A stretch of 64,000 bases of DNA from Vicinamibacterales bacterium (GTDB taxonomy: Bacteria > Acidobacteriota > Vicinamibacteria > Vicinamibacterales > UBA8438), in the NCBI GenBank assembly GCA_965246995.1, contig OZ252008.1, positions 562,323-626,322 of the forward strand, in the 5' to 3' direction. Within the stretch, counting starts at the first letter, position 1, and every line of letters begins with the position of its first letter. A program made the translations under genes and the position numbers. The notes beneath the pieces were generated by a model. The model saw only the letters and a program-made list of their open reading frames with translations. It ran no database searches and was not told the DNA's origin. This document shows, one piece after another, positions 4,487 to 61,915 of this stretch.

Positions 4487-4591
4487 CGATGAGGTTGTTC
4501 CCGCTACTTTGGCGTCGGAAGCGTTGGGGCAGATTCCCGCGGTGTCGGTAGATAACGTGTTCGTCGAACCGTCGAAGCAAAGAGAGGCTGG

Positions 4592-4749
4592 GAGTCCGTG
4601 GTGAAACCCCGGGTAGCACCGAGAGCGGCGAGGCGCTCGCCTGACAAGGCGCGACGAGGAAGCATATTGGCCATATGAGACCGAGGAGCAACGCCGTTCA
4701 GGCGGGATGCATCGCCGCTCGAATGTAGCGGGGGTTTCACCACGGGCTC
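4592..4749 (-). mobile_element. MITE-like palindromic element, copy B (short form, 158 bp, inverted orientation)
   Basis: Same family as copy A. Termini are GAGTCCGTGGTGAAACCCC ... GGGGGTTTCACCACGGGCTC. It is flanked by the direct repeat CTGG (4588-4591) and CTGG (4750-4753). Confidence 0.85.
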
Positions 4750-4808
4750 CTGGAGACTGGGTGGGTGAACATCGCGAAGAGGCGTTGAGCGAAACGGAGG
4801 GATGAGCG

Positions 4809-8685: not shown

Positions 8686-10035
8686 ATGCAGCCCGATCAG
8701 CGACGCTCGTTCCTGCCGTCCTTCATCGTCGTGGGCGTACTCGCCGCGACGCTCGGCATCGGCGCTATTTTCCTCGGCGAGTTGTACGAAGCGACCACGC
8801 CGAGCGCCATTGCGGCCCCTGGCGATGTCGCCGGCGCGGTCGGCGAGGCCGATCTCGCCACCGTGGACCCCGCCGCCGTCGGGCTTTCCGCCGAACGTCT
8901 CGAGCGCCTCGACGATGGCCTGCAGGGGCTGGTGGACGACGGCAAGATCGCGGGCGTCGTCGCGCTGCTCGCCCGCCACGGCAAGATCGTGTTCACCGAC
9001 GTGGCCGGCGTCCAGAACGTCGATACCGGCAGCCCGATGGGGCGCGACTCCATCTTCCGCATCTTCTCGATGACGAAGCCGATCACCGGCGTCGCGATGA
9101 TGATGCTCTATGAGGAAGGGAAGTGGCGCCTGAACGATCCGGTCGAGCGCTACATCCCCGAGTTCGCCGACCTGAAGGTGCACGTCGGTGAGAACTCCGA
9201 CGGCTCGATGCGACTCGAGGACCCCGACCATCCGATCACGATGCGCGAACTGATGACGCATACCGCCGGCCTCGGCTACGTCCTCAATCCGCGCCACCCG
9301 GTCAACCAACTGTTCCTCGAGCAGCGCGTCCTCAACCCGACGGAAGAACTCCAGGTGATGATCGACAAGCTCGCCGGGATCCCGCTGCTGGAGCAGCCGG
9401 GGCAGCGCTGGATCTACAGCGTGGCGGTCGACGTGCGCGGCTACCTGGTGGAGCAGCTTTCGGGCGTGCCGTTCGAGCAGTTCCTGCAGGACCGCATCTT
9501 CGACCCGCTCGGCATGGTCGACACGAAGTTCTACGTCCCGGAGTCGAACGTCGACCGCATCGCGCTCCGTCACCGGATCGATGAGGGCGGCGACCTCGCG
9601 CTCGATTCACGCGGCGACCCGTTCACGTCGAACCCGGCCGGTCCGTCGGGCGGCGGCGGCCTCTTCGGCACCGCCGACGACTACCTCCGCTTCGCGCAGA
9701 TGCTCCTGAACGGCGGCGAGTTCGATGGCCACCGCCTGCTCTCGCCCCGCACCGTCGAGATGATGCGCACCAACCACATGTCGGCGCAGGCGACCGAGAA
9801 CATGCGCGCCGGCATGGGCTTCGGCATGGACGTCATGATCTACATGGATCCGGCCGCGGCCGGCGAGCCGCATGGCGTCGGCAGCTACTACTGGCTCGGC
9901 ATCGACGGCACCTGGTTCTGGATCGATCCGGTCCACGACCTCGTCTTCGTCGGCATGCTCCAGCATCAGGGCCCGAATCAGGGGATGACGCACGGGCTCA
10001 GCCGCAACTGGGTCTACCAGTCCATCGTGCACTGA
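8686..10035 (+). CDS. Serine hydrolase of the beta-lactamase/esterase (class C-like) family
   Basis: 449 aa with an N-terminal TM/signal segment and the S-x-x-K motif in FRIFSMTKPITGVAMMML. The family is beta-lactamase-related. Confidence 0.8.
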   Translation: MQPDQRRSFLPSFIVVGVLAATLGIGAIFLGELYEATTPSAIAAPGDVAGAVGEADLATVDPAAVGLSAERLERLDDGLQGLVDDGKIAGVVALLARHGKIVFTDVAGVQNVDTGSPMGRDSIFRIFSMTKPITGVAMMMLYEEGKWRLNDPVERYIPEFADLKVHVGENSDGSMRLEDPDHPITMRELMTHTAGLGYVLNPRHPVNQLFLEQRVLNPTEELQVMIDKLAGIPLLEQPGQRWIYSVAVDVRGYLVEQLSGVPFEQFLQDRIFDPLGMVDTKFYVPESNVDRIALRHRIDEGGDLALDSRGDPFTSNPAGPSGGGGLFGTADDYLRFAQMLLNGGEFDGHRLLSPRTVEMMRTNHMSAQATENMRAGMGFGMDVMIYMDPAAAGEPHGVGSYYWLGIDGTWFWIDPVHDLVFVGMLQHQGPNQGMTHGLSRNWVYQSIVH

Positions 10036-10064
10036 CGCCGGGCGTCGGCGCGCGGCCTTGCGGG

Positions 10065-10565
10065 TCAGCGAATGCGTTCCACGCGACCGGACGAGCTGCG
10101 GATGTCCTGCTCCTCGACCGCGCCGTCATGAATCGTCACGTTGCCGGAACTGCTGATGTCGATCTGGAGTGCGCCGGCTTCGATGCCCTCCATCGACAGG
10201 TCGCCGGAGCTGCTGATGTCGACCTCGAAGCGGTCCGCCGACAGCCTGGAGGCGTGCGCGTTGCCGCTGCTGGAGAGCGCGATACGCTCGAGGGACCTGA
10301 CGGTGAGCGTAAAGCGAACCGGTTCGGACGGCTGCAGATTGGCACCCCGCCGGCCGCGGATTCTCAGGGTGTCGCCGACCTGTTCCGCCTCGAAATACGG
10401 AAGCAGGTTGTCGTCCGTTTCGATGCGCAGCTCTTCCCGATCCCCAAGATGGATGTCCAGCTCGCCAAGCGTCGACAGCCGGACGCCGGTGAGGTCGGTG
10501 AACGTGTAGGTATCCTCGGCGATCGTTCCCGATCCCTGGAGGGTCTCCTGGTTGGTGATGCTCAC
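10065..10565 (-). CDS. GIN-domain (DUF2807-like, putative adhesin-head) beta-helical repeat protein
   Basis: 166 aa with repeated SSSG(D/N)..(I/V) strands (ALSSSGNAHAS, DISSSGDLSMEG, DISSSGNVTIHDG). No signal peptide is present. The GTG start overlaps the stop of a 19-codon upstream ORF (10562-10621). Confidence 0.55.
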   Translation of the reverse strand: MSITNQETLQGSGTIAEDTYTFTDLTGVRLSTLGELDIHLGDREELRIETDDNLLPYFEAEQVGDTLRIRGRRGANLQPSEPVRFTLTVRSLERIALSSSGNAHASRLSADRFEVDISSSGDLSMEGIEAGALQIDISSSGNVTIHDGAVEEQDIRSSSGRVERIR

Positions 10566-10711: not shown

Positions 10712-11272
10712 ATGATGCCGGACTTCTTGCGGATTGGCGCGGAGGTGATGATCGCGGTCGCGGCGATGCTCACCGTTCTCTGGCGTTTCAACGATTCGCT
10801 CGGTAAGGAGTTGCGCGCGGACATCAGGGTGCTTGGTACCGAGTTGCGCGGTGACATCAGCACTCTCGGTACCGAATTGCGCGGTGAAATCGGAGCACTC
10901 GATACCGAGTTGCGCGGTGAAATCGGGGCGCTCGATGGCAAGTTGTCCGGTGACATCAGGACACTCGGCACCGAGTTGCGTGGTGAAATCAAAACGCTCG
11001 GCACGGAGTTGCGCGGTGAAATCGGGGCACTCGATACCAGGTTCTGCGGTGAAATCGGCACGCTTGGCACGGAGTTGCGTGGTGACATCAGTGCTTTGCG
11101 TGTGGACAACAGAGAGCTGCTCGCCCGAGTGTCAAGAATTGAGGGGCTTCTTGAACTTCGCGCAGAACCGCGCACGAAGGTGGGCGCCACTCAGTCGTCG
11201 TCCGGGTCCAGTCCGGCGGACGATCGCGATGACCCCAAGGAGGATGCGGACAACGCTGTCGCGGGCGGTTAA
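10712..11272 (+). CDS. N-terminally membrane-anchored protein made of 11-residue (hendecad) tandem repeats
   Basis: The ATG at 10712 follows a GGAGGA site. A TM helix (FLRIGAEVMIAVAAMLTVLW) is followed by nine repeats of the type LGTELRGEIGA and an acidic disordered tail. The track ORF start at 10592 is probably too far upstream. Confidence 0.65.
   Translation: MMPDFLRIGAEVMIAVAAMLTVLWRFNDSLGKELRADIRVLGTELRGDISTLGTELRGEIGALDTELRGEIGALDGKLSGDIRTLGTELRGEIKTLGTELRGEIGALDTRFCGEIGTLGTELRGDISALRVDNRELLARVSRIEGLLELRAEPRTKVGATQSSSGSSPADDRDDPKEDADNAVAGG
10808..11104 (+). repeat. Nine tandem 33-bp repeats (consensus GAGTTGCGCGGTGAAATCGGGGCACTCGATACC), in frame in the CDS
   Basis: Unit boundaries counted by hand are 10808, 10841, 10874, 10907, 10940, 10973, 11006, 11039 and 11072. 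Confidence 0.9.
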
Positions 11273-16979: not shown

Positions 16980-16984
16980 CCCAG

Positions 16985-17178
16985 GAGCCCGTGGTGAAAC
17001 CCCTGCTACATTCGAGCGGCGATGCATCCCGCCTGAACGGCGTTGCTCCTCGGACTGCGTTCAGTCCGCGGACTGCGTCAGTCCGCGGTCGCAATATGGC
17101 CAATATGCTCCCTCGTCGCGCCTTGTCAGCCGGGCGCCTCACCGCTCTCGGTGCGACGCGGGGTTTCACCACGGGCTC
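16985..17178 (+). mobile_element. MITE-like palindromic element, copy C (long form, 194 bp, two central hairpin modules)
   Basis: It has the same termini as copy A. The centre carries GGACTGCGTTCAGTCC and GGACTGCGTCAGTCC. Flanks are CCAG (16981-16984) and CTAG (17179-17182). It lies between trkA and trkH. Confidence 0.85.
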
Positions 17179-17192
17179 CTAGCACCCAGTCG

Positions 17193-20807: not shown

Positions 20808-21272
20808 ATGCCTGACGTCGTCCATACCAGCCGGATGCGGATCGAACGGGTGAAGGGCCCGGTCCGCCAAGCGTTTCTCGAGGGCTTCGACACGCCGATC
20901 CGCTTCGGCGTCCACGGGGGCATCAAGAAGTTCTACGGCGTCGAGCCTGAAGAGGAAGTCCCCGCGACGCTGGACTACATCGTCGGCGCAGTCGGCGGTT
21001 GACTGCTCGGGACACTTGCACGCGCACTGGAAGTGCGCAAAATTCCGGCGCCGCCCGACAAGATCAAGGCCCAGGTGGAGGGCGACATCGAGGCGATCGA
21101 CAATGTGCTGCGCATTACGCGCATCCGGGTCCGGTACGACCTGACGGTTCCGAGCGGGATGCGGGAGGCCGCCGAGCGCGCCGTCGCGAAGCACCCGAAG
21201 GGCTGCCCCGCTGCGAACAGCGTTGCCGGCTGCATAGACCTCGACATCACCGCCGACATCACCGAGGAGTAG
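20808..21272 (+). CDS. OsmC/YhfA-family peroxiredoxin-like protein with an in-frame TGA (21000-21002) at the conserved active-site Cys position; candidate selenoprotein
   Basis: Track ORFs 20766-21002 and 21033-21272 are in the same frame (both starts are divisible by 3) and are separated only by the TGA. The joined sequence is ...PATLDYIVGAVGG-[TGA]-LLGTLARALEVRKI...KHPKGCPAANSVAG. It parallels E. coli YhfA ...PSPMEMVLMAAGG-C-SAIDVVSIL...EKYCSVA (from memory). A GGGAGGGA site precedes the ATG at 20808. Confidence 0.6.
21022..21038 (+). promoter_or_regulatory. Candidate bacterial SECIS hairpin for the OsmC-like gene
   Basis: GCGCACU-GGA-AGUGCGC forms a perfect 7-bp stem. The G-rich apical loop starts 26 nt after the UGA. 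Confidence 0.4.
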
Positions 21273-21312
21273 GTCCACCGGCCCGCGGGCCGGCTTCGCC
21301 AAGACTCTCGCC

Positions 21313-25048: not shown

Positions 25049-26776
25049 ATGGTGATCATGTCCAGAAAGACACTGGCGGTGGCGGCGATGCTGGGAATCA
25101 CGCTGATCGGCTCCGACTTCCAAACGCAGGCGCAAACGCAGGATGCCCTCGGCCACGGCTACAGCCGCCCGGCCCGCAGCGTCCATGGCAGCCGTTCCGA
25201 GGTGATCGCCCCGAACGGTATGGTCGCGGCGAGCCAGCCGCTTGCCGCGCAGGTGGGCCTCGAGGTCCTCAAGTCGGGCGGCAACGCGATCGATGCCGCC
25301 GTCGCGGTCAACGCGATGCTCGGCCTGGTCGAGCCGCACATGAACGGGGTTGGCGGCGACCTCTTCGCCATCCTCTGGCACGCCGAGACCGAGCAGCTCT
25401 ATGCGCTGAACGGCACCGGGCGCGCGCCGTACGAGATCAGCCGCGAGACGCTGGTCAGCCAGGGCTACGAACGGATGCCGGGCGCCGGTCCGCTCACCTG
25501 GACGGTTCCGGGCGCGGTCGATGCCTGGTCGCAACTGCTCGAACGCTTCGGCACGATGGAGCTGGCCGACCTGCTCCAGCCCGCCATCGACTACGCGCGC
25601 AACGGCTTCCCGGTCAGCGAGATCATTCAGGGGCAGTGGTCCGGGTCGATGCCGTCCCTCCGCGAGTGGCCGACATCAGCCGCGACGTACCTGCCGAACG
25701 GCAGGCCGCCGGCTGTGGGCGAGCTGTTCAAGAACCCGCAGCTCGCGGACACCTACGAACAGGTCGCGCGCGGCGGCCGCGATGCGTTCTACCGCGGCGA
25801 GATCGCGCGGAAGATAGTCGCGTTCAGTGAAGCGAACGGCGGCTACTTCACGATGGCCGACTTCGAGGATCACACGTCCGAGTGGGTCGAGCCGGTCGGC
25901 ACCAACTACCGCGGCTACGACATCTGGGAGGTACCGCCCAACAGCTCCGGGATCCTCGCACTGATGATCCTGAACATCCTGGAGGGCTATGACATCGCGT
26001 CGCTCGGCCACAACAGCGCGGATGCGCTGCACCTCTTCGCGGAGGCGAAGAAGCTGGTCTGGGCGGATCGCAACACCTACGTCGCCGACGCGAACGCCAA
26101 CACGCTGCCGACGCAGCCGCTCATCTCGAAGCCGTATGCGGAATCGCGCCGCAAGATGATCGACAAGGGACGCGCCGCGACCGAGGTGACCCCCGGCAAC
26201 CCGTTCGAGCACAGCGACACCGTCTATCTGACCGTGGTCGACAAGGACCGGAACGCCATCTCGTTCATCGAGAGCATCTTCGGCGGTTTCGGCTCGAAGA
26301 TCGTGCCGGGCGACCTCGGCTTCGCGCTCCAGAACCGGGGTTCAGGCTTCTCCCTCGAGGAGGGGCACCTCAATTCGCTCGAGCCGCACAAGCGCTCGCT
26401 CCACACCAACATGCCGGGCTTCGTCACCAAGGACGGCAAGCCGTTCATGCCGTTCGGCGTGATGGGCGGTCCGATGCAGCCGCAGGGTCACTGGCAGATC
26501 CTGTCGAACATCATCGACCACGGCATGAACATCCAGGAAGCGGGCGACGCCGCGCGCGTGCGCCACAGCCCGAGCAGCTATCCGGGGGGCACGCTGGCCG
26601 TCGAGCCGGGCATCTCGGACGAAGTCATCGCGGAGCTCCGCCGCCGCGGCCACCATGTCGAACGGCAGGGTGGGGGCGGCATGGGGGGCTACCAGGCGAT
26701 CATGATCCACCCCGAAACCGGCATGCTCCACGGCGGGACCGATCCTCGCAAGGACGGTCTGGTGGCGGGGTACTAG
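25049..26776 (+). CDS. ggt: Gamma-glutamyltranspeptidase
   Basis: It has a signal peptide and GMVAASQPLAAQVGLEVLKSGGNAIDAAVA. The autoprocessing region reads HSDTVYLTVVDKDRNAISFIESIFGGFGS. The stop TAG (26774-26776) lies in the CTAG flank of MITE copy D. Confidence 0.9.
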   Translation: MVIMSRKTLAVAAMLGITLIGSDFQTQAQTQDALGHGYSRPARSVHGSRSEVIAPNGMVAASQPLAAQVGLEVLKSGGNAIDAAVAVNAMLGLVEPHMNGVGGDLFAILWHAETEQLYALNGTGRAPYEISRETLVSQGYERMPGAGPLTWTVPGAVDAWSQLLERFGTMELADLLQPAIDYARNGFPVSEIIQGQWSGSMPSLREWPTSAATYLPNGRPPAVGELFKNPQLADTYEQVARGGRDAFYRGEIARKIVAFSEANGGYFTMADFEDHTSEWVEPVGTNYRGYDIWEVPPNSSGILALMILNILEGYDIASLGHNSADALHLFAEAKKLVWADRNTYVADANANTLPTQPLISKPYAESRRKMIDKGRAATEVTPGNPFEHSDTVYLTVVDKDRNAISFIESIFGGFGSKIVPGDLGFALQNRGSGFSLEEGHLNSLEPHKRSLHTNMPGFVTKDGKPFMPFGVMGGPMQPQGHWQILSNIIDHGMNIQEAGDAARVRHSPSSYPGGTLAVEPGISDEVIAELRRRGHHVERQGGGGMGGYQAIMIHPETGMLHGGTDPRKDGLVAGY

Positions 26777-26952
26777 GAGCCCGTGGTGAAACCCCCGCTA
26801 CATTCGAGCGGCGATGCATCCCGCCTGAACGGCGTTGCTCCTCGGACTGTGGCAGTCCGCGGTCGTCATATGGCCAATATGCTCCCTCGTCGCGCCTTGT
26901 CAGGCGAGCGCCTCGCCGCTCTCGGTGCTACGCGGGGTTTCACCACGGACTC
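26777..26952 (+). mobile_element. MITE-like palindromic element, copy D (medium form, 176 bp, one central hairpin module)
   Basis: It has the same termini as the other copies and a central GGACTGTGGCAGTCC. It is flanked by CTAG (26773-26776) and CTAG (26953-26956). Confidence 0.85.
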
Positions 26953-28158
26953 CTAGTTCCACGGAGGGGTCCTCCCCAATTCCGCTGGCGCGAGGGACAA
27001 GTTGGGAAGAGCCGCGAGACGGGCCACGTCCGTGACCGCCAGGACTGTGATGTTGCGGTCCGCCGGGTAGGTGCTGTTCGTTGGACAGACGACGAACAGG
27101 TGATCGAGCCCGAGTGTGGCGGTAACGTTGCGCAACTGGGCGGTCACCCTGGGCGCCTCGCTGAACTTCACCTCGAATCCGATACGGCGGCCGCGGTGTA
27201 ACACGAGCAGGTCCAGCTCGCCGCCCCCGTGGGCCGCCCAGAACCACGCCTGAACGGGATCCAGGGCCGACAGGATCTGTTCGATCACGAAGCCTTCCCA
27301 GGATGGCCCGACACGCGGGTGGCTGAAGAGCTCGGCGTCGTTCCGGATCCCGAGCAACGCGTGCAGCAGACCGGTGTCGCGGAGGTAGACCTTCGGCGCC
27401 TTGACCTGGCGCTTGGCGACGTTCTCGTACCAGGGCTGGAGCTGGCGGACCATGAAGGCTCCGGTCAGCAGGTCCAGATAACCGCGGACCGTCTTGTCAG
27501 AGGCGCTGATCGAGCGGCCCAGGCTGGAGGCGTTCCAGGTCTGGCCGTGCCAGTGCGCGAGCATCGTCCAGAACCGCTCGAGGGCGGCGGCCCGGATGGT
27601 GATGCCCAATTGCGGGATGTCGCGTTCCAGGAACGTGCGTATGAACGCGCGGCGCCACGAGTGGCCGTCGTCATCCGTCGGCGCGAGATACGACCTCGGA
27701 AGTCCGCCGCGCAGCCAGAGCGTCCGCCAGGCGTCGGCGCCGGTCTCCGAGAGATCGAAGCCGGTCATATCGATGAACTCGACCCGGCCGGCGAGGGACT
27801 CGGATACAACCCGCACGATCCCGGGTGACGCGCTGCCCAGGATCAGGAAGCGCGTTCTCGCGCCGGGGCGGTCTGCCAGCACCCGCAGGACGTTGAAGAG
27901 GTGCGGCATCCGCTGGATTTCGTCCACCACAACCAAGCCGTCGAGCGCCCCGAGGACCAGCTCGGGATTGGCGATTCGGCGAACGTCCTGATTGGATTCC
28001 AGGTCAAGAAAGGTGGCGTTGCGCGTTGCCGCGAACTGCCGGGCGAGCGTCGTCTTGCCGCACTGCCGGGGTCCCAGCAGCGAGGTGACAGGCGCGCGGC
28101 GGGTTGCGGCGGCGAGTCGATCCAGGTAGTCGGAGCGGGCAACCAGGGTGTCTGACAC
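26953..28158 (-). CDS. AAA+ ATPase with a DUF4143-type C-terminal domain (COG1373-like)
   Basis: The Walker A motif is LLGPRQCGKTTLARQF and the Walker B region is LVVVDEIQ. 401 aa with a GTG start. The stop is the reverse TAG of the MITE flank. Confidence 0.75.
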   Translation of the reverse strand: MSDTLVARSDYLDRLAAATRRAPVTSLLGPRQCGKTTLARQFAATRNATFLDLESNQDVRRIANPELVLGALDGLVVVDEIQRMPHLFNVLRVLADRPGARTRFLILGSASPGIVRVVSESLAGRVEFIDMTGFDLSETGADAWRTLWLRGGLPRSYLAPTDDDGHSWRRAFIRTFLERDIPQLGITIRAAALERFWTMLAHWHGQTWNASSLGRSISASDKTVRGYLDLLTGAFMVRQLQPWYENVAKRQVKAPKVYLRDTGLLHALLGIRNDAELFSHPRVGPSWEGFVIEQILSALDPVQAWFWAAHGGGELDLLVLHRGRRIGFEVKFSEAPRVTAQLRNVTATLGLDHLFVVCPTNSTYPADRNITVLAVTDVARLAALPNLSLAPAELGRTPPWN

Positions 28159-28244: not shown

Positions 28245-29009
28245 CTATCGTTCCTGCGGCACGAAGACGTCCCGCGCGGGCATCTGCACCTGCGCGAGCG
28301 TGCTGGCGTTCATCACCGCGTCGGTCTCGATGATGCCGTTCTCCGCGAGCAGCCAGGCGGAGAGGGCGTAGACCTCGTCGTTGGCGAGGGTGCCGGGTGC
28401 GTTCGAGGGCATCGCTCTCCGGATGTAGTCGAAGAGCGTGGTGGCGTAGGGCCAGTAGTTCCCCACCGTGAACGGGACGTCGTCACCGTCGCCACGCCAT
28501 TCCTCGTAACGGGGGCCGAACGGCGGCGCGGTCCCCGGTTCGTAGCCGACGAGCGGTTCTGCGCTCATTCCTTCGCCGGCGCGGCCGTGGCAACTGGCGC
28601 AGTGGCGGAGGTAGATCGGCGCGCCGTCGGCGTGGGAGCCTTCGCCTTCCGGGAGGCCGGTGCCGTCCGGCATCACATCGATGTCCCACGCGGTGATCTC
28701 TTCGTGGGTGGCCTCGCGGCCGAAGCCGAAGCGGTCGGGATAGCCGGCCGGCGCTGTGGTGCCGACCGGCGCTGTGGTGCCGACCGGCACTGTGGTGCCG
28801 ACCGCCGCCGTCGTGTCGGCGGGCGCCGCATCGGTCATTGTTGCCGGCTCGGCGGCGGGCGGTGCGCTGTCCGCGCCCGTGCAACCGGCCGCGAGCACTG
28901 CGACAGCGAACAGCGTGGAGGCGAGACGCGTGAGCGCGAGATGCGTGAGGGATCCCGGCGTGGACGCCGGCGGACCATACGCCGGCGCACCGCGCGTTAT
29001 GCGTCCCAC
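28245..29009 (-). CDS. sorB: Cytochrome c subunit of sulfite dehydrogenase (lipoprotein-type signal)
   Basis: CASCHGRAGEG is the heme c site, and the lipobox-like segment is LFAVAVLAAGC. The proposed GTG start at 29009 overlaps the sorA stop. The longer track ORF (to 29504) overlaps sorA out of frame and is unlikely to be real. Confidence 0.65.
   Translation of the reverse strand: MGRITRGAPAYGPPASTPGSLTHLALTRLASTLFAVAVLAAGCTGADSAPPAAEPATMTDAAPADTTAAVGTTVPVGTTAPVGTTAPAGYPDRFGFGREATHEEITAWDIDVMPDGTGLPEGEGSHADGAPIYLRHCASCHGRAGEGMSAEPLVGYEPGTAPPFGPRYEEWRGDGDDVPFTVGNYWPYATTLFDYIRRAMPSNAPGTLANDEVYALSAWLLAENGIIETDAVMNASTLAQVQMPARDVFVPQER
28748..28801. repeat. Three tandem 18-bp repeats (CCGGCGCTGTGGTGCCGA) inside sorB
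   Basis: Units start at 28748, 28766 and 28784. On the minus strand they encode (V/A)GTT(V/A)P x3 in the linker after the lipobox. Confidence 0.8.
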
Positions 29010-30220
29010 GGTTCCTCCTCGCGGTAGAAGACGTGGCCGTCGGACTGAACACGCCAGGCGGTGATCGGGTTGAGGTGGTAGCGCCGGGCGCGGCGGCCTC
29101 TCTGGGCAAGGAGTTCCGCGCGCGTCGGCTGGACGTAGCCGGTATCGTCGGTCGCGCGGCTCATGATCTCGGTCTCGTTGCCATCCCACTGCCACAGGTG
29201 GCGGAACCGGGTGTGCGCCTGGCGGAGCACCGGCTCCTGCAGACGCGCCGGCTGCCAGGTGGCGCCGCCATCGGTGCTGGTGTCGACCTGGGCGATGGTT
29301 CCGCGGCCGGACCAGGCGATGCCCCGGAGCTCTATCCAGCCCGGCTCGATCACCTCGGGATACGCCGGCGACGTAATCACCGAGCGGGCGTCGAAGACAA
29401 AGCTGAAGCTCCGCGCTTTGCCGTCGGCCATCGGGTCGGTGTACTTCGACGTCTCCTCGCGGGTCATGAACGGCTGATCGGCCAGCTCGATCCGGCGCAG
29501 CCACTTGACGTTCGAGTTTCCCTCCCAGCCGGGGAGCAGCAGGCGCGCCGGGTAGCCCTGCGACGGGCGCAGCGATTCACCGTTCTGGGCGTAGGCGATC
29601 ATCGCGTCGTCCCACGCCTTCTCCATCGGGACGCTCCGCGTCATCACGGCGGCGTCCTGTCCTTCGGCCAGCAACCAGGAGGCGTCGGGACTCGCCCCCA
29701 CCTCGCGGAAGAGCGTAGCCAGGGTGACGCCGGTCCATTCGGTGGTCGCCGTCATGCCGCAGACATTCTGCGGCATGGTCTCGGGGCCAGCCGCCTGCGG
29801 GTAGTTGCCGGAGCACTCCAGGAAGCAGATGCGCGACGTCGCGGGAAAGCGTTTCAGTTCGTCGAGCGTGAGGATCATGGGCCGCTCGACCATGCCGTGG
29901 ATCAGGAGCTGGTAGTTGTCCGGGTCGATCGACGGCACGCCGGCGTGGTGACGCTCGAAGTGGACATCGGATGGCGTGATCATGCCGTGGAGGTCCTGGA
30001 GCGGCGTGCGGGAGGAACCGCGGGTGACGGAGCCGCGCGAGAGCGTCGCGTGCGGCGAGCGGTCGCCGAGCACGCTGGGAGGACCGCCGGGGGCCTTCGT
30101 TGTGTCGCCGGATTGGGCGAGGGCGTCGCGCGACGTGGGGAGTGTCGTGGCGGCGATGGCGGTGGCGGCGGTCGCGAGGAGACGGCGCCGGGTAATTGTC
30201 TTCGTGCTGCTGCGGGGCAT
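28997..30220 (-). CDS. sorA: Molybdopterin sulfite dehydrogenase/oxidase catalytic subunit with a Tat signal
   Basis: The twin-arginine signal is [25 protein letters not shown]...ICFLECSGN...[25 protein letters not shown] are SorA/SUOX-family motifs. Confidence 0.85.
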
Positions 30221-30285
30221 TGCGTCCTCCTGTCGTGCGACGCAGCCGGACGAAGTTCTCCGGCGGCGCCGCTTCCACTCCGCCG

Positions 30286-30516
30286 TTACGCGGTGGTCAA
30301 CGCCTTCAGGGCGTCAAGGACTTCCTGGGGTTCCGGGAAGCGTTCCTCCTTGTGCTTGGAGAAAATCATCTCGCCATCGGCGATGACGTCGAAGATGCCG
30401 TTGGTTCCCTCGATCAACTCGGCGTCGATATCGAACGCCTGCCTGATGTCGGCCGCCAGACTGGTGGCCCGGGGTCCGTACTTTCAACGGGTGCAGTAGG
30501 TAATCGAAATCTTCAT
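30286..30516 (-). CDS. SelW/Rdx-family (SelW-SelT-SelH-like) small redox protein with a CxxU motif; the in-frame TGA at 30484-30486 is read as selenocysteine
   Basis: Not in the ORF track. My translation is [10 protein letters not shown]-[TGA][65 protein letters not shown], 77 codons in total. A GGGAGGAG ribosome-binding site lies 10 nt upstream of the ATG at 30516. The Rdx family hallmarks are present (YCxxC/U near the N-terminus, G.FeV..dG..ifsk...gRFPe). Confidence 0.75.
30451..30469 (-). promoter_or_regulatory. Candidate bacterial SECIS hairpin for the SelW-like gene
   Basis: The mRNA reads GGCCACCA-GUC-UGGCGGCC, giving 7 base pairs and one A.C mismatch. The apical loop starts with GU, about 22 nt after the UGA. 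Confidence 0.45.
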
Positions 30517-30570
30517 GGGTGGCGCACTCCTCCCGTGAATCCTACTCGGAAGCGGGGCTCGCGTCGACAG

Positions 30571-32115
30571 CTAGCGCCGCCAGGCGAACAGGCGGGTGAG
30601 GAGCGCTTTCTGGCGCGCGCTGAAGCGGGATCGGCGGAGCTGGTTTGCGGTCCGGCGCCAGGCCTCGGCCTGTGTGGGGTAGGGGTGAATCGCGGCGCCG
30701 ATGGTCCCCAGTCCGGCCCTGGCCTGCATAGCGACGGTCACCTCGCTGATCAGGTTGCCGGCGTCGGCGGCGACTATTGTCGCGCCCAGGATCCGGTCGG
30801 TCCCCTGCTGGACGAGGACCCGCGCGAAACCGGCCTCCTCGCCATCGAGCAGCGCGCGGTCGACCTCCTCGAGCGGCTGCGTGAACGTCTCGACGGCAAG
30901 GCCTTTCTCGCGGGCATCCGCTTCGTACATCCCGACGTGCGCGATCTCGGGTTCGGTGTACGTGCACCAGGGGATGATCAGGCTGTCGGTCGTCCGGCGC
31001 CCGAGACCCAACGGGTGGGGGAAGAGGGCGTTCTGGATGACGATCTGCGCCATCGCATCGGCGGTATGCGTGAACTTGAAGGGGAAGCAGATATCGCCGG
31101 CAGCGTAGATGCGGGGGTTGCTCGTCCGGAGGTAGCTGTCGACGGTGACCCCCGCCCGGTCGAACGCCACGCCCGCCGCCTCCAGGCCGAGGTTCTCGAC
31201 GTTGGGAGCGCGCCCGACGCCGACGAGGATGGCATCCACGGTGACGTCGCTGGCGGCGCCGTCCAAGGTGTAGCGAATGTTCTTCTGGCCGCCGTTCGCC
31301 CCATCCGACTCGACGGACTCGACCTTGGCGTTGAATATGAAGCGGACCCCATCGTGTGCCATGCGGTCCTGCACGACCTCCGCCGCGTCCGGATCTTCGC
31401 GTGGGAGGATGTGATCGAACATTTCGATCAGCGTCACCTCGCTGCCGAAGCGGGCGAACGCCTGCGCCATCTCGCAACCGATCGGACCGGCCCCGATTAC
31501 GGCCAGGCGCGGCGGCAGCTCGGTCAGGGAGAAGACGGTTTCGTTCGTCAGGTAGCCGGCTTCGGCGAGGCCCGGGATCGGCGGCGCCGCGGCGCGCGCG
31601 CCGGTGCAGATCGCGCCGCGCGCAAACTGCAGGGTCGTATCGCCTACCTGCAGCGTGTCCGGTCCGGCGAAGCGTCCTTCGCCAAGGAAGATATCGACGC
31701 CGAGGCCGCGGTAGCGCTCGGCCGAATCGACATGGCTGATGGTTGCGCGGAGGCGGCGCATCCGTTCCATCGCGATACCGAAGTCGCGCTGGACGCCACC
31801 GGGAAAGGTGAGGCCGAAGCCCGCGCCGTCCTGGGCGCTCGCCCAGACGCGCGCCGCGCGGATCATTCCCTTCGAGGGGACGCAGCCGACGTTCAGGCAG
31901 TCGCCCCCCATCAGGTGGCGTTCGACCAGTGCGACTTTCGCGCCGAGGCCTGCCGCTACCGACGCGCTGATCAGGCCGGCGGTCCCGGCGCCAACCACCA
32001 CCAGGTTGTAGCGGCCGTCCGGCGTGGGGTTCTGCCAATCGGGCGGATGGACATTCGCCGTCAACTGGCGGTTGAAAAGGTCGTCAGGGGGCAGCAGGGA
32101 TTCGATTTCAGTCAC
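30571..32115 (-). CDS. FAD-dependent pyridine nucleotide-disulfide oxidoreductase (mercuric reductase/dihydrolipoamide dehydrogenase-like, no NmerA domain)
   Basis: [47 protein letters not shown] carries the redox-active CxxxxC. It also has an NAD site ([12 protein letters not shown]) and a dimerisation domain. 514 aa. Confidence 0.85.
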
Positions 32116-32178
32116 GGCGGATCACTATATGCTGTAGCGCTGCGGTGCCCCCTTCGAATCGGGGCGGAAGGAGAAACC

Positions 32179-32844
32179 ATGCTGTTCGCCAACCCGGCCA
32201 GCCTTCGCGTCCCGGATGCCGACACGGCACTGCCCGGCCGCGACGAGCCGATACCGGTTTCGCCGGAGCACTTCGTGCACGGCCGGCGTATCGTCCCGCC
32301 GTTCCCGGACGGCGCCGGGCAGGTGCTCTTCGGGATGGGTTGCTTCTGGGGCGCGGAGAAGGCGTTCTGGGATGTGGAAGGCGTCTACGCGACGGCCGTC
32401 GGCTACGCGGGCGGGCTGACGAAGAACGCCACCTACCGGGAGGTGTGCGGCGGACAGACCGGCCACGCCGAAGTGGTGCTCGTGGTGTACGAACCGGACG
32501 TCCTGCCGTTCGAGCGGCTGCTGACCCTCTTCTGGGAGCATCATGACCCGACGCAGGGGATGCGCCAGGGGAACGATGTCGGGACGCAGTACCGGTCGAC
32601 CATCTATGTCGCGGGCGCCGAGCGGCTCCGCGCCGCCGAGGCGTCGTGGGAGCGCTACGCGCCGCTCCTGGCCGAGGCCGGTTACGGGCCGGTCACGACC
32701 GAGATCCGCGACCTGCCCCCCTTCTACTACGCCGAGGAGTATCACCAGCAGTATCTCGCCAAGAACCCGTTCGGGTACTGCGGGCACGGCGGAACCGGCG
32801 TCACGTGTCCCGTCGGCGTCGTGAGGGAGACGACGGCGCGTTGA
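32179..32844 (+). CDS. msrA: Peptide methionine (S)-S-oxide reductase
   Basis: From the ATG at 32179 (GGAAGGAG site upstream) it reads ...[16 protein letters not shown]...GYAGG...[15 protein letters not shown]...FWEHHDPTQ. It is embedded in a long spurious track ORF (30196-32844). Confidence 0.9.
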
Positions 32845-38375: not shown

Positions 38376-39973
38376 GAGTTTGCGCCGCAGAAAAGGGATG
38401 CGACAATCGCAGACCATCCGACGACGAAAGGACCTGATGTCGACGACGTTCCGCCGCTACGCACCGGACCAGACCCTGTTGCTGCCAGCCGACATGCGGG
38501 AGTGGCTGCCGGAAGGCCACTTGGCGCATCACGTGAGCGACCTGGTGGACGGTTTGGATCTGACGGCGTTCTACGCGCCGTATGAGGGAGACGGACGGCG
38601 CAACGCGCCGTATGCGCCGCGGATGCTGGTGAAGGTGCTGATCTACGCGTATGCGACGGGGGTGTTTTCGTCGCGGGGGATCGCGAAGAAGCTGGAAGAG
38701 GACGTGGCGTTCCGGGTGCTGGCGGCGGGCAACTTTCCGCAACACCGGACGGTGTGCGAGTTCCGTCGGCGGCACCTTGGGGACTTCAAGAAACTGTTTG
38801 TGGAGGTGGTGCGTCTGGCGCAAGAGCTGGGGCTGGCGAGCTTCGGGAAGTTGTCGATAGACGGGACGAAGGTGCGGGCGAACGCGAGCAAGCGCAAGGC
38901 GATGAGCTACGGTCGGATGCAGGAGGAGGAGCGTCGCTTGGTCGGCGAGATTGACGCGCTGCTGGCGTCGGCGGACGACGCTGACGCGGCCGAGGATGCG
39001 CGGTTGGGGGCGGAGGTGCGCGGCGACGAGCTGCCGACGGAGTTGCGGCGGCGGGAGGATCGTCTGGCGGCGATCCGGGCGGCGAAGGCGCGTCTGGAGG
39101 CGGCGCAGCGGGCGGCGGACGACGCGCGCGGGCGGCAGCCGGGCGAGGGTCGGAACCCGCAGGGCGGTCGGCCGTACAAGCGGGGGTATGGCGAGCCGGA
39201 CGAGAAGGCGCAGAGCAACTTCACGGATCCGGACAGCGGGATCATGAAGACGAGCAACGAAGGGTTCCAGCAGTGCTACAACGCGCAGGTGGCGGTGGAT
39301 GGTGACCACCAGTTGGTGGTGGCGACCGACGTGACGGCGAACGCGAGTGACCAGGGCGGGTTGCCGGCGCTGCTCGACGCGGTGTCGGAGACGTTCGACG
39401 CGCAGCCGGAGACGGTGCTGGCCGACGCCGGGTATTGCAACGAGCGGGACTTGGTGGACCTGGAGACGCGGGGCGTCAACGGGTATGTGGCGCCGGGACG
39501 AGAGGGTAAGACGGCGGCGACCAGCGACCCCAAGAAGCATCCGGCGACGAGTCGCATGTCGGAGAAACTGGCGACGCGGGCGGGCCGGGCGGCGTATGCG
39601 GAACGCAAGTGGCTGTCGGAGGCCCCGCACGGCTGGATCAAGCACGTGCTGGGATTCCGGCGCTTCAGCCTGCGGGGACTCGCCACGGCGGGCGGCGAGT
39701 GGGACTTGGTGTGCCTGGCGTTGAACGTCAAACGCCTTCAGCCCCTGATGGGGATGTGAAACGCGAGGTATGAAGCCGGCAACGGCCGCGCAGCGGTGCG
39801 AATCGTGGCCGCTGGCGAGCCCCGGGGCGCGTCGGAGCCGATTTTGCCGACCGTTTCGCCGGCCGCCGAGAATCGACCTCGCCCGCTGACCGGCGAAGTC
39901 GCCCCGACGCGGTGCGTCAGGTTGTGGGCCGACGGCCAACTATCGTCCGGCGAATCTCCTGCGGCGCAGACTC
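38376..39973 (+). mobile_element. IS1182-family insertion sequence, copy 1 (1598 bp)
   Basis: The inverted termini are GAGTTTGCGCCGCAG and CTGCGGCGCAGACTC. It is flanked by CTAG (38372-38375) and CTAG (39974-39977) and contains a single transposase ORF. Confidence 0.85.
38437..39759 (+). CDS. IS1182-family DDE transposase
   Basis: MSTTFRRYAPDQTLLLPADMREWLPEGHLAHHV...RNAPYAPRMLVKVLIYAYATGVFSSRGIAKKLEEDVAFRVLAAGNFPQHRTVCEFRRRH...LSIDGTKVRANAS is the typical IS1182 N-terminal region and DDE region. Confidence 0.88.
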   Translation: MSTTFRRYAPDQTLLLPADMREWLPEGHLAHHVSDLVDGLDLTAFYAPYEGDGRRNAPYAPRMLVKVLIYAYATGVFSSRGIAKKLEEDVAFRVLAAGNFPQHRTVCEFRRRHLGDFKKLFVEVVRLAQELGLASFGKLSIDGTKVRANASKRKAMSYGRMQEEERRLVGEIDALLASADDADAAEDARLGAEVRGDELPTELRRREDRLAAIRAAKARLEAAQRAADDARGRQPGEGRNPQGGRPYKRGYGEPDEKAQSNFTDPDSGIMKTSNEGFQQCYNAQVAVDGDHQLVVATDVTANASDQGGLPALLDAVSETFDAQPETVLADAGYCNERDLVDLETRGVNGYVAPGREGKTAATSDPKKHPATSRMSEKLATRAGRAAYAERKWLSEAPHGWIKHVLGFRRFSLRGLATAGGEWDLVCLALNVKRLQPLMGM

Positions 39974-39977
39974 CTAG

Positions 39978-41681
39978 CCCGGATAATTCAGGAAGGGTCC
40001 GATTACGGTAGAAAAACAAGAGCCTCCGCGTGGTATAAATGGCTTATTCACAGACATTTACCCACCACGGAGGCCCTTGCGTGACGATCAATACGATACC
40101 ACAGACTGTCCTCTTTCCGGATCTCTTCGACAAGCCCCTCGTCGCGACGTTCGACCGCCGGCACGCGAGTTCCGATGGCGGCGCCGTCCTGCTCAAGGCG
40201 GCGGAGCGCGTGTATGGGTTGGTGGCGGGTTTCGCCCGGTGTCTGGTGGACCGGCGGGAGCCCGGGAAGATCCGGCACACGCTGGCGGAGTTGCTCGGCC
40301 AGCGGATCTTCGGCATTGCCTGCGGCCATCCCGATGGCAACGACGCCGACCACCTCGCCGACGACCCGATCCACAAGCTGTTGCTCGGGCGGGACCCGGT
40401 GGCGGGGGAGGCGTTGGCCTCGCAGCCGACGATCTCGCGGTTCGAGAACGGCGTTGGCCGGTCCGCCCTCTACGAGCTGGCGCGCGAGCTGGCGATGCGG
40501 GTCATCGAGCGGCATCAGCGCCGGCTGGACGGGCGGGCGCGGCGCATCACGATCGACCTGGATCCGACCGACGACGCGACGCACGGCGCCCAGCAGCTCA
40601 CCTTCTTCAACGGGCACTACGATCGCTGGTGCTACCTGCCGTTGCTGGCGTTTCTGACCTTCGACAAGGAACGCGAACAGTATCTGTGCGCGGCGGTGCT
40701 GCGGCCCGGCAATGTGCCGGCCCCCCGCGGGACCGTGGGCGTGTTGTGCCGGCTGCTGCCCCTGCTGCGGCAGGCCTTTCCCCAGGCGCGGTTTCTCGTC
40801 CGGCTCGACGGGGGCTTTGCGACACCGGAGATCTTCGACTTCCTGGATGCCGAGCCGCGGCTCGACTACGTGGTGGCCATGGCCAAGAACGCCGTGTTGC
40901 AGCGCCACGCCGAGCCCGCCCTGCTCGTGGCGCAGGCCCAGAGCGCGGCCAGCGGCCAGACCGCGCAGGTCTACGCCGACACCCGCTATCGGGCCCGCAC
41001 GTGGGACCGCGACCGCCGCGTCGTGATCAAGGCCGAGGTCGTCCGGCTCGGCGACCGCGCCCCGCGCGACAACCCGCGCTTCGTCGTGACCAATCTGCGC
41101 CAGACGCCGCGCTTCCTCTATGAACGGATCTACTGCGCCCGCGGCGACATCGAGAACCGCATCAAGGAACTGCTCGATGGCCTGCAGATCGACCGCACGA
41201 GCTGCTGTCGCTTCTGGGCCAATCAACTGCGCGTGCTGCTCACCGCCGCCGCCTACGTGCTGATGCAAGAACTCCGGCTGCGCGCGGCGCGCACCGCCTG
41301 TGCCCGCGCCCAGGTGACGTGGCTGCGCGACCGGCTCCTCAAATTGGGGGCGCACGTCGTCGGCTCGGTCCGCCGCGTGGTCCTGCACCTGCCGACCGCC
41401 ACGCCGGACCTCCACGCCTGGCGGCACATCGCGCTGGCACTCGGCGCCCGCCCCGGATAGACCCCAGACAGCGCCCGTCAGCCGCGCATACACGCATCCC
41501 AACGGCGAACCGAGCCCGCCCATGGCGAAGCCGTCCCTGGACGGCCCCATACCCAGGCCTTCCGCACCGGCAATCAGTGTCTATCCCGCCGGCGCTCGAC
41601 GAAAACGACGCCCGGCGGGCCGTGTGCGCGACGATCACACCGTCCGAGGGGCCATCTTGGAGCCTTCAGGAATAGTCCGGG
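39978..41681 (+). mobile_element. IS1380-family insertion sequence, copy 1 (1704 bp)
   Basis: The termini are imperfectly inverted (CCCGGATAATTCAGGAAGG and CCTTCAGGAATAGTCCGGG). It is flanked by CTAG (39974-39977) and CTAG (41682-41685). Confidence 0.8.
40039..41460 (+). CDS. IS1380-family DDE transposase
   Basis: ATFDRRHASSDGGAVLLKAAERVYGLVAGFARCL...IFGIACGHPDGNDADHLADDP...LASQPTISRFENGV...ITIDLDPTDD is the IS1380 pattern. Confidence 0.88.
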   Translation: MAYSQTFTHHGGPCVTINTIPQTVLFPDLFDKPLVATFDRRHASSDGGAVLLKAAERVYGLVAGFARCLVDRREPGKIRHTLAELLGQRIFGIACGHPDGNDADHLADDPIHKLLLGRDPVAGEALASQPTISRFENGVGRSALYELARELAMRVIERHQRRLDGRARRITIDLDPTDDATHGAQQLTFFNGHYDRWCYLPLLAFLTFDKEREQYLCAAVLRPGNVPAPRGTVGVLCRLLPLLRQAFPQARFLVRLDGGFATPEIFDFLDAEPRLDYVVAMAKNAVLQRHAEPALLVAQAQSAASGQTAQVYADTRYRARTWDRDRRVVIKAEVVRLGDRAPRDNPRFVVTNLRQTPRFLYERIYCARGDIENRIKELLDGLQIDRTSCCRFWANQLRVLLTAAAYVLMQELRLRAARTACARAQVTWLRDRLLKLGAHVVGSVRRVVLHLPTATPDLHAWRHIALALGARPG

Positions 41682-41685
41682 CTAG

Positions 41686-41861
41686 GAGTCCGTGGTGAAA
41701 CCCCGCGTAGCACCGAGAGCGGCGAGGCGCTCGCCTGACAAGGCGCGACGAGGGAGCATATTGGCCATATGACGACCGCGGACTGCCACAGTCCGAGGAG
41801 CAACGCCGTTCAGGCGGGATGCATCGCCGCTCGAATGTAGCAGGGGCTTCGCCACGGGCTC
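41686..41861 (-). mobile_element. MITE-like palindromic element, copy E (medium form, 176 bp, inverted orientation)
   Basis: It belongs to the same family, with a central GGACTGCCACAGTCC. Flanks are CTAG (41682-41685) and CTAA (41862-41865). Confidence 0.85.
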
Positions 41862-41887
41862 CTAAGCCGCTGGCCGCGCGAGGCCGG

Positions 41888-60018: not shown

Positions 60019-60022
60019 CTAG

Positions 60023-61733: not shown

Positions 61734-61737
61734 CTAG

Positions 61738-61896
61738 GAGCCCGTGGTGAAACCCCCGCTACATTCGAGCGGCGATGCATCCCGCCTGAACGGCGTTGCT
61801 CCTCGGTCTCATACGGGCCAATATGCTCCCTCGTCGCGCCTTGTCAGTCGGGCGCCTCACCGCTCTCGGTGCGACGCGGGGTTTCACCACGGGCTC
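61738..61896 (+). mobile_element. MITE-like palindromic element, copy F (short form, 159 bp)
   Basis: It belongs to the same family. Flanks are CTAG (61734-61737) and CTAA (61897-61900). Confidence 0.85.
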
Positions 61897-61915
61897 CTAA
61901 GGAGGATAGCCGCGA

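Follow-up and report, generated by a model that had tools for sequence, protein, structure and literature searches.

The window, the whole stretch of DNA analysed here, is 64,000 nucleotides long and comes from a Vicinamibacterales bacterium (Acidobacteriota; contig OZ252008.1, positions 562,323 to 626,322). It carries a cluster of five redox genes: msrA, a flavoprotein gene, the gene rdx of a SelW-like selenoprotein, and the soxC and soxD genes of a sulfite dehydrogenase. The explanation that we favour, with moderate confidence, is that the cluster is an islet of separate units: msrA would belong with the flavoprotein gene, and rdx, soxC and soxD would form a second unit with its own promoter, in which Rdx serves the same stress as SoxCD. 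The comparison of about 180 related loci points to a lineage-specific juxtaposition of genes, not to a new reductase-selenoprotein module. The elements of the cluster are the following.

32179-32844, plus strand: msrA, peptide methionine (S)-sulfoxide reductase (PMSR 195.9 bits, TIGR00401 208 bits; start confirmed)
30571-32115, minus strand: flavoprotein gene, class I flavin adenine dinucleotide (FAD)/NAD(P)H pyridine-nucleotide disulfide oxidoreductase, NF004991 (PRK06370.1-3)
30539-30567, minus strand: predicted promoter-like element for rdx, inside the spacer between the flavoprotein gene and rdx
30286-30516, minus strand: rdx, 76-residue SelW-like/Rdx selenoprotein with the motif CTRU (Pfam Rdx and translation)
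30484-30486, minus strand: UGA codon (codon 11 of rdx), read as selenocysteine (Sec)
30452-30468, minus strand: hairpin GCCACC-AGUCU-GGCGGC resembling a selenocysteine insertion sequence (SECIS; alignment of 29 loci)
28997-30220, minus strand: soxC-type molybdenum (Mo) sulfite dehydrogenase catalytic subunit with the twin-arginine translocation (Tat) motif TRRRLL (TIGR04555, 2XTS_A)
28245-29009, minus strand: soxD-type monohaem cytochrome c with CASCH (2XTS_B match; GTG start)

The list of open reading frames (ORFs) and direct translation confirmed the five genes at the coordinates and on the strands given in an earlier note on this DNA, including the CLNVGC motif of the flavoprotein (32115-30571) and the divergent orientation of msrA, which starts at 32179, 63 nt from the start of the flavoprotein gene. 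The spacers in the window are 54 nt between the flavoprotein gene and rdx and 65 nt between rdx and soxC, and soxD overlaps soxC by 13 nt.

The rdx gene stands directly ahead of soxC and soxD in most Vicinamibacterales loci

A scan anchored on Rdx in 185,579 species-representative genomes gave 80 loci, originating from Vicinamibacterales, Planctomycetota, Myxococcota, Gammaproteobacteria, Gemmatimonadota and others (at least 8 phylum-level groups). These loci were searched with the proteins of the window. The flavoprotein, SoxC, SoxD or MsrA were found near rdx in the 23 Vicinamibacterales-type loci only (window included), and none of them near rdx in the about 60 loci from other phyla, even at E < 0.01. 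In 16 of the 23 loci soxC lies downstream of rdx on the same strand, at 53-166 nt when measured between tblastn matches and at 41-92 nt when measured from start codons, and in L006 the rdx stop codon overlaps the soxC start by 4 nt (ATGA). The same arrangement was recovered in L090, L091, L170, L172 and L174, so that rdx, soxC and soxD are adjacent and co-oriented in 21 of 28 Vicinamibacterales-type loci, with spacers ranging from a 4-nt overlap to 166 nt. L174 keeps rdx and soxCD with neither the flavoprotein gene nor msrA within 10 kb. A SoxC (69% identity) from another Vicinamibacterales genome is preceded, 125 nt upstream, by a Sec-containing rdx that had not been called, again with no flavoprotein gene or msrA within 10 kb. 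In all examined loci with a SoxC of at least 69% identity, rdx was present upstream. No paper describing the pairing of rdx with soxCD was found in the literature; the unit is apparently undescribed, and its parts all belong to known families.

A promoter-like box was located wholly inside the 54-nt spacer ahead of rdx in the window (-35 TCGACG at 30567-30562, 17 nt, -10 TAGGAT at 30544-30539). When the upstream regions of 19 Vicinamibacterales loci were aligned on the rdx start codon, the heptamer GTAG(G/T)AT appeared at -27 to -30 from the start in 13 of them, with 2 near variants besides, and a TTCAC/TCGAC box preceded it by 17-18 nt. The heptamer occurs just 26 times in 856 kb, both strands counted. 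The relatedness of the genomes makes the box look more significant than it is. The box is kept whether the sequence above it holds a co-oriented flavoprotein gene or an opposite-strand ORF, and no conserved box of comparable quality was found before soxC. From these features we infer that rdx, soxC and soxD are probably transcribed from their own promoter in the 54-nt spacer. A consensus scan for promoters and terminators returned nothing intergenic, the rdx box lying below the threshold of the scanner, and no terminator consensus was found between the genes of the cluster. Two terminator-like hits were discarded, being inside the rdx coding sequence and at chance expectation. Of the separate promoters or terminators that the earlier note had listed as refuting its reading, no terminator consensus was found, and the conserved, predicted promoter-like box between the flavoprotein gene and rdx is of the refuting kind.

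Evidence against a functional rdx-soxCD unit

Several observations weigh against this reading. The link of rdx with soxCD is limited to one order, and none of the about 60 Rdx loci of other phyla has soxC. Conversely, a SoxC-anchored scan of metagenomes gave 80 loci (about 38-82% identity), in 64 of which soxD adjoins soxC; among the 62 informative ones, those with at least 350 nt upstream of soxC, rdx was present upstream in 2 only, the closest two (86% and 73% identity). Within Vicinamibacterales, seven loci have rdx without soxCD. A single juxtaposition in an ancestor, passed on by descent, could therefore account for the adjacency of rdx and soxCD. Since Rdx resides in the cytoplasm and SoxCD in the periplasm, any biochemical link between them would be indirect. 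Concerning transcription, the rdx box is a weak match to the consensus (4/6 and 4/6) and is predicted only, and read-through from the flavoprotein gene into rdx may occur. The spacer between rdx and soxC carries a GC-rich hairpin in the window and a stronger one in L007 (z = -3.2), and such hairpins could attenuate co-transcription; they are not conserved in L008, L010 and L011. Finally, 4 of the 7 rdx loci without soxCD (L009, L020, L021 and L027) have a co-oriented flavoprotein gene upstream of rdx, immediately upstream in the case of L009, L020 and L027, which leaves some room for the flavoprotein as reductant of Rdx.

These observations are compatible with a complete lack of functional coupling, in which independent genes occupy a rearrangement-prone islet and rdx has merely been inherited beside soxCD within one order. 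Such an explanation, which we take seriously and nevertheless find doubtful, agrees with the absence of a partner of Rdx in about 60 loci, with soxCD standing without rdx in 60 of the 62 informative loci, with the presence of the flavoprotein gene without rdx or soxCD in L087, L171 and L173, and with the origin of all positive cases from a single order; in the window, moreover, repeats resembling miniature inverted-repeat transposable elements (MITEs) and transposases flank the islet. It accounts poorly for the persistence of rdx and soxC as contiguous, co-oriented and closely spaced genes while their surroundings shuffle, for the overlap of stop and start codons in L006, for a promoter-like box conserved ahead of rdx and not ahead of soxC, and for the occurrence of rdx upstream of every examined SoxC of at least 69% identity. 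De novo clustering of the neighbours of Rdx in other phyla yielded no general partner, only Ser/Thr kinases at variable distance and strand, and the other recurrent neighbours were genes common to six closely related Gammaproteobacteria. The connection that the earlier note drew in passing between the selenoprotein and a sulfite-oxidizing enzyme is retained as a tight and repeated linkage of rdx to soxCD in one order, and not as one that extends to other phyla.

The flavoprotein is not a constant neighbour of rdx

The earlier note considered the adjacent flavoprotein as an obvious candidate reductant of the CxxU centre. The complete form of this proposal is a single four-gene operon in which the NF004991 flavoprotein is the dedicated NAD(P)H reductase of Rdx, within a stress module shared with msrA. 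In the window the co-oriented genes are indeed tightly spaced (54 nt, 65 nt and the 13-nt overlap) and without terminator consensus between them. The two genes are co-oriented in 15 Vicinamibacterales loci and directly adjacent in two sub-lineages (the window with L007-L009, and L020 with L027); the pairing survives the absence of soxCD in L009, L020, L021 and L027, and the two still lie near each other in the marine relatives (L002, L003 and L017). The wider survey is in disagreement with the proposal, since in most relatives the adjacency is broken by opposite-strand genes, converted into a convergent arrangement or lost. In 6 of the 23 loci the flavoprotein gene is directly upstream of rdx on the same strand. 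In another 5 it is 600-1160 nt upstream, and four of these (L018, L019, L023 and L024) have an ORF of about 150 residues on the opposite strand (orf150) in between. The flavoprotein gene is 3.5-4 kb away in 2 (L011 and L015), convergent with rdx in 3 (L002, L003 and L017) and missing within 10 kb in 6 (L010, L012-L014, L016 and L022). In L170 and L172, too, orf150 on the opposite strand parts it from rdx, accompanied or not by a Macro gene. In the L014 genome an 80%-identical flavoprotein orthologue was detected at 0.40 Mb and rdx at 2.25 Mb, 1.85 Mb apart, with no second rdx beside the former. All four genes are contiguous and co-oriented in the window, L007 and L008 only, and the presence of the flavoprotein gene near rdx is uncorrelated with that of soxCD (both in 9 loci, flavoprotein only in 7, soxCD only in 6). 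No class I flavoprotein gene is present within 10 kb of rdx in the about 60 loci from other phyla, and the flavoprotein gene was found in none of the SoxC-anchored metagenome loci.

The reverse view, taken from five loci anchored on flavoprotein homologues, gave a similar picture. In two of them rdx-soxCD lies 1.2 kb away behind two opposite-strand genes, rdx being uncalled in one, two others have neither rdx nor soxCD, and rdx-soxCD is missing from the fifth, L173. In L173 the flavoprotein gene is preceded at 45 nt, on the same strand, by a gene (8927-9955) for an MsrP/YedY-like Mo enzyme with a Tat signal (PF00174 only, 342 residues). With msrA nearby, this enzyme is a hint that the context of the flavoprotein is the repair of methionine sulfoxide and not Rdx. 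In most relatives having both genes msrA adjoins the flavoprotein gene; the best reading of the gene order is that the flavoprotein would pair more with msrA than with rdx. In the window these two genes, transcribed divergently, would share a 63-nt control region. By its GCFWG motif MsrA is a Cys form, and a recycling pair of Cys lies at its C terminus.

The family of the flavoprotein leads to the same view. The protein contains the domains Pyr_redox_2, Pyr_redox and Pyr_redox_dim and scores 769.5 bits against NF004991 'FAD-containing oxidoreductase' (cutoff 620), in an alignment that spans protein residues 7-514 and 7-508 of the 509 profile positions; it falls under all equivalog cutoffs tested. 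Its nearest solved structures are distant (MerA, 259 bits; lipoamide dehydrogenase, 216 bits), and a MerA identity was rejected (TIGR02053, 378.9 bits for a cutoff of 454.45; no C-terminal Cys pair and no NmerA domain). In an alignment of 11 homologues (73-100% identity) the CLNVGC disulfide and the HPYPTQAE dyad are invariant. The same alignment shows a conserved N-terminal extension and a conserved basic C-terminal tail, ANQLRRARFxxRQKAxLxRLFAWRR, with no Cys or Sec in either. The protein thus shares with the class I flavoprotein disulfide reductases (MerA, dihydrolipoamide dehydrogenase, glutathione/mycothione reductase, high-molecular-mass thioredoxin reductase) the FAD/NAD(P)H domains, the CxxxxC disulfide, the His-Glu dyad and the dimerisation domain, and differs from them by family-specific, Cys-free N- and C-terminal extensions and by the lack of NmerA and of a C-terminal Cys-Cys or Cys-Sec pair. 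High-molecular-mass thioredoxin reductase and MerA reach bulky or metal substrates via an auxiliary Cys/Sec centre. The tail without Cys or Sec excludes the high-molecular-mass thioredoxin reductase type, and a small-molecule disulfide would be the more natural expectation for the substrate of the flavoprotein.

The proposal of a dedicated reductase, then, meets an inconsistent adjacency, the separation of the orthologues by 1.85 Mb in one genome, a conserved promoter-like box between the two genes, a flavoprotein devoid of the flexible C-terminal Cys/Sec centre of MerA and high-molecular-mass thioredoxin reductase, and msrA, not rdx, as the most constant neighbour of the flavoprotein gene; we regard it as quite unlikely. 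As the obvious reductant of the CxxU centre the flavoprotein holds up poorly, and the four-gene co-transcribed unit, contiguous in three loci only, is weakly supported. The neighbourhood survey that the earlier note had called for found the adjacency of flavoprotein gene and rdx in Vicinamibacterales only, inconsistent even there, and in none of the about 60 loci elsewhere.

The relatives share a backbone made of genes for a pyridoxal-phosphate decarboxylase, a phosphatase, OsmC, DsbH and a transketolase, continued by GGT, soxD-soxC-rdx, orf150/Macro, the flavoprotein gene, msrA, HAD and GH65, in which the elements GGT, soxD-soxC-rdx, orf150/Macro and flavoprotein gene are present or absent independently of each other. 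The cluster would correspond to a variable, rearrangement-prone redox islet within this conserved backbone. Of the sulfur- or oxidative-stress module suggested in the earlier note there remains the sharing, by the redox genes, of one variable islet in one order; the genes behave as separable units and not as one module. Absent from the window and without a match in Pfam, orf150 is conserved elsewhere (for example L002 413-871, L003 924-1373 and L172 11597-12052). Its orientation is opposite to that of rdx in most relatives and the same as that of rdx in the marine ones, and a Macro-domain gene often accompanies it.

Rdx is a SelW-like selenoprotein

The product of rdx belongs to the Rdx family by profile search (PF10262, 69.8 bits for a cutoff of 22.6; TIGR02174, 55 for 34.2) and misses the equivalog NF041051 SelTWH_Campy (82.4 bits for a cutoff of 88). 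Its relatives in the Protein Data Bank are 2FA8, 3DEX and 2OKA. The redox motif CTRU occupies residues 8-11, and the protein has no signal peptide and is therefore expected in the cytoplasm. Each of the six closest database homologues found by protein search is a truncated gene call, since gene callers end the frame at UGA; extended upstream, each of them shows SITYCxxU with an in-frame TGA. Full-length Rdx was rebuilt from DNA, and six-frame translations were searched by hidden Markov model with TGA read as Cys. Across the 80 Rdx loci the Sec codon position is TGA in 74, TGC in 5 (L082-L086, from Rhizobium, Devosiaceae and Patulibacter) and lost in 1.

The SECIS-like hairpin begins 16 nt past the UGA codon and is composed of a 6-bp stem and a 5-nt loop, AGUCU. 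In an alignment of 29 loci the G and the U of the loop are invariant, 85.6% of the cells are paired, and 11 double-sided compensatory changes were counted for 2.2 in shuffled alignments, none of 500 shuffles equalling the observed value. Slid controls of the alignment were much lower. The hairpin is revealed by the comparative alignment alone, the fold of the single sequence downstream of UGA being not significant (z = 0.31), and Rfam gave no match anywhere in the window. The gene rdx of the window is a genuine SelW-like/Rdx selenoprotein gene, and the earlier designation of this small ORF as a SelW-like CxxU protein is upheld by the TGA common to the homologues, the Cys forms and the covariation of the SECIS stem.

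Among the selenoproteins predicted in bacteria the SelW-like ones are abundant, and their function is unclear (PMC1088965, PMC1794560, PMC13188914). They were predicted from Sargasso Sea and genome surveys (PMC1088965, PMC1794560), and it is still true, as the earlier note had it, that bacterial Rdx/SelW proteins have no established partner (PMC1088965, PMC13188914). The Rdx of the window resembles the known members in its fold family, its N-terminal CxxU, its small SECIS hairpin with a G in the apical loop and the prevalence of Sec forms over a few Cys forms. It differs from them by the position of its gene in the window and in Vicinamibacterales, directly upstream of soxCD.

In L022 (Vicinamibacterales, OZ219745.1, rdx at 10001-10237), an in-frame deletion of 9 nt removes R-U-K-Y and leaves ...ITYCTHLPR..., a protein that lacks both Sec and the second redox residue; the SECIS-like sequence is retained, as is soxCD downstream. 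This deletion could be due to decay or to an assembly artefact.

Neither selA, selB, selC nor selD was found in the 64-kb window, nor was a tRNA-Sec. A tRNA-Gly(ccc) of 88 nt predicted by ARAGORN at 54450-54537 has an odd anticodon position, lies inside the ORF 53559-55838 and is almost certainly a false positive. The window contains a probable second selenoprotein gene, OsmC-like, at 20850-21275 on the plus strand, with an in-frame TGA (21000-21002) at the position of the first catalytic Cys of OsmC (...IVGAVGG*LLGTL...). With this TGA translated as Cys, the Pfam OsmC score rises from 29.8 to 45 bits and the match extends over profile positions 8-99. A hairpin GCGCAC-UGGAA-GUGCGC lies downstream of the UGA, and in L174 the gene caller split the same gene into two ORFs, of 66 and 79 residues. 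This second candidate indirectly supports the use of Sec in the organism.

The Mo enzyme and the cytochrome are of the SoxC and SoxD type

The earlier note had named the Mo enzyme and the cytochrome SorA and SorB. A Tat-exported Mo enzyme and a cytochrome c are indeed encoded, and it is the family that has to be changed. The Mo enzyme contains the domains Oxidored_molyb (PF00174) and Mo-co_dimer (PF03404), scores 492.9 bits against TIGR04555 (SoxC) for an equivalog cutoff of 420, and matches the structure of SoxC (2XTS_A) with 321 bits and that of SorA (2BLF) with 118. The SorA family (NF052245) was rejected with 151.5 bits for a cutoff of 600 and SorT with 134 bits for a cutoff of 570. In source annotations its homologues are named 'sulfite dehydrogenase' or 'sulfane dehydrogenase subunit SoxC'. 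Residues 92-254 of the cytochrome align with the N-terminal haem domain of SoxD (2XTS_B, E 4.7e-33).

SoxD carries a lipobox (LAAGC) and is probably a lipoprotein; its start is uncertain, with 41 residues ahead of the lipobox Cys. The linker that joins the lipobox to the haem domain has the form VGTT(A/V)P and is encoded by a tandem repeat of 18 nt (4.7 copies, 28743-28826), and this N-terminal region of SoxD is not conserved in the relatives. The adjacent soxC and soxD genes are probably translationally coupled.

SoxYZ, SoxAX and SoxB are absent from the Pfam-annotated genes of the 64-kb window, for which reason SoxCD is most likely a dehydrogenase of free sulfite and less likely an oxidiser of SoxY-bound sulfane. 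In comparison with SoxCD of Paracoccus pantotrophus (2XTS; TIGR04555), the Mo subunit with its Tat signal and the SoxD haem domain are alike, whereas the SoxCD of the window stands alone, with no SoxYZ, SoxAX or SoxB within the 64 kb, and its monohaem cytochrome resembles a lipoprotein and has a repeat linker. With SorAB of Starkeya novella (2BLF; NF052245) it shares the superfamily, the logic of a periplasmic heterodimer and probably the reaction, its Mo enzyme being outside the SorA family by sequence (NF052245 and 2BLF scores).

Possible roles of Rdx beside SoxCD

In the explanation that we favour, SoxCD would act as a stand-alone periplasmic sulfite:cytochrome c dehydrogenase, with a Tat-exported Mo subunit and a lipid-anchored haem subunit. 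Rdx would be a cytoplasmic CxxU thiol/selenol oxidoreductase, co-expressed with SoxCD in Vicinamibacterales and most likely handling the cytoplasmic side of the same stress. Its substrate can be approached by deduction from the gene context: Rdx might reduce sulfite-modified or oxidised thiols, or it might hold the Mo-ligand Cys of apo-SoxC in the reduced state ahead of export. Thiol repair and the chaperoning of apo-SoxC are the two mechanisms deemed most plausible for an rdx gene preceding soxCD. The reducing power, by the same kind of deduction, would most likely be supplied by general thiol systems rather than by a dedicated flavoprotein. The more committed proposal, that the Sec-containing SelW-like protein is the product of the promoter-proximal gene of a sulfite dehydrogenase operon and works together with SoxCD, as a thiol reductase or as a chaperone of apo-SoxC, has in our opinion a small chance of being correct.

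Other Tat-exported molybdoenzymes have operon-encoded chaperones. By analogy, Rdx could be a dedicated maturation factor of SoxC, a redox chaperone for the Mo-coordinating Cys of the apoprotein before Tat export. Such a function agrees with the place of rdx at the head of the unit, just before the gene of a Tat-dependent Mo enzyme, with the lack of a signal peptide in Rdx and with the absence of any other conserved accessory gene in the unit. Most soxCD pairs, however, have no rdx and most Rdx genes have no Mo enzyme nearby, L022 retains soxCD behind an rdx that lost its Sec codon through the in-frame 9-nt deletion, and no precedent was found in the literature searched. We judge an exclusive maturation function to be very unlikely.

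Other features of the window

A palindromic repeat of about 165-183 nt is present in six copies (2177-2343, 4587-4751, 16981-17183, 26773-26956, 41681-41864 and 61734-61900). Its termini are the inverted repeats CTAGGAGCCCGTGGTGAAACCCC...GGGGTTTCACCACGG, its fold has -106 kcal/mol (z = -9), and the repeat resembles a MITE or a repetitive extragenic palindromic (REP) element. One copy, at 26.8 kb, fills the gap between GGT and the DUF4143 gene; together with the copy at 41.7 kb, which is inverted and 98% complementary, it brackets a 14.7-kb block holding the cluster. A recent inversion of this block by way of these 183-nt inverted repeats was considered and rejected, since most relatives share the gene orientation relative to GGT. 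The 19-nt core of the repeat has no exact match in 173 related loci.

Two pairs of DDE transposase genes (DUF772/DDE_Tnp_1 and DDE_Tnp_1_4), at 38380-41460 and 58605-61531, differ in relative orientation, and each is near a copy of the palindromic repeat. A tandem array of about 11 copies of a 33-nt unit (64-79% identity) occupies 10764-11126, where no gene is called. The adjacent genes 51370-53574 and 53559-55838 are paralogues whose products, about 740 residues long, have N-termini resembling signal peptides and match no Pfam family, and a stretch of 300 nt near their 3' ends is 72% identical.

Significance for bacterial SelW-like proteins

SelW-like proteins rank with the most abundant selenoproteins predicted in bacteria and are without known function or partner. 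The present analysis removes one tempting partner, the neighbouring flavoprotein not being a conserved one, and offers in its place a narrower, testable lead: rdx as the first gene before a stand-alone SoxCD in one soil and marine order. The restriction to this order keeps the lead modest. If the link is not functional, the locus is a variable islet of ordinary redox genes. If it is, a selenoprotein would be tied to sulfite detoxification, and the role of the bacterial SelW-like proteins, a question dating from 2004-2005, would be given its first functional context.

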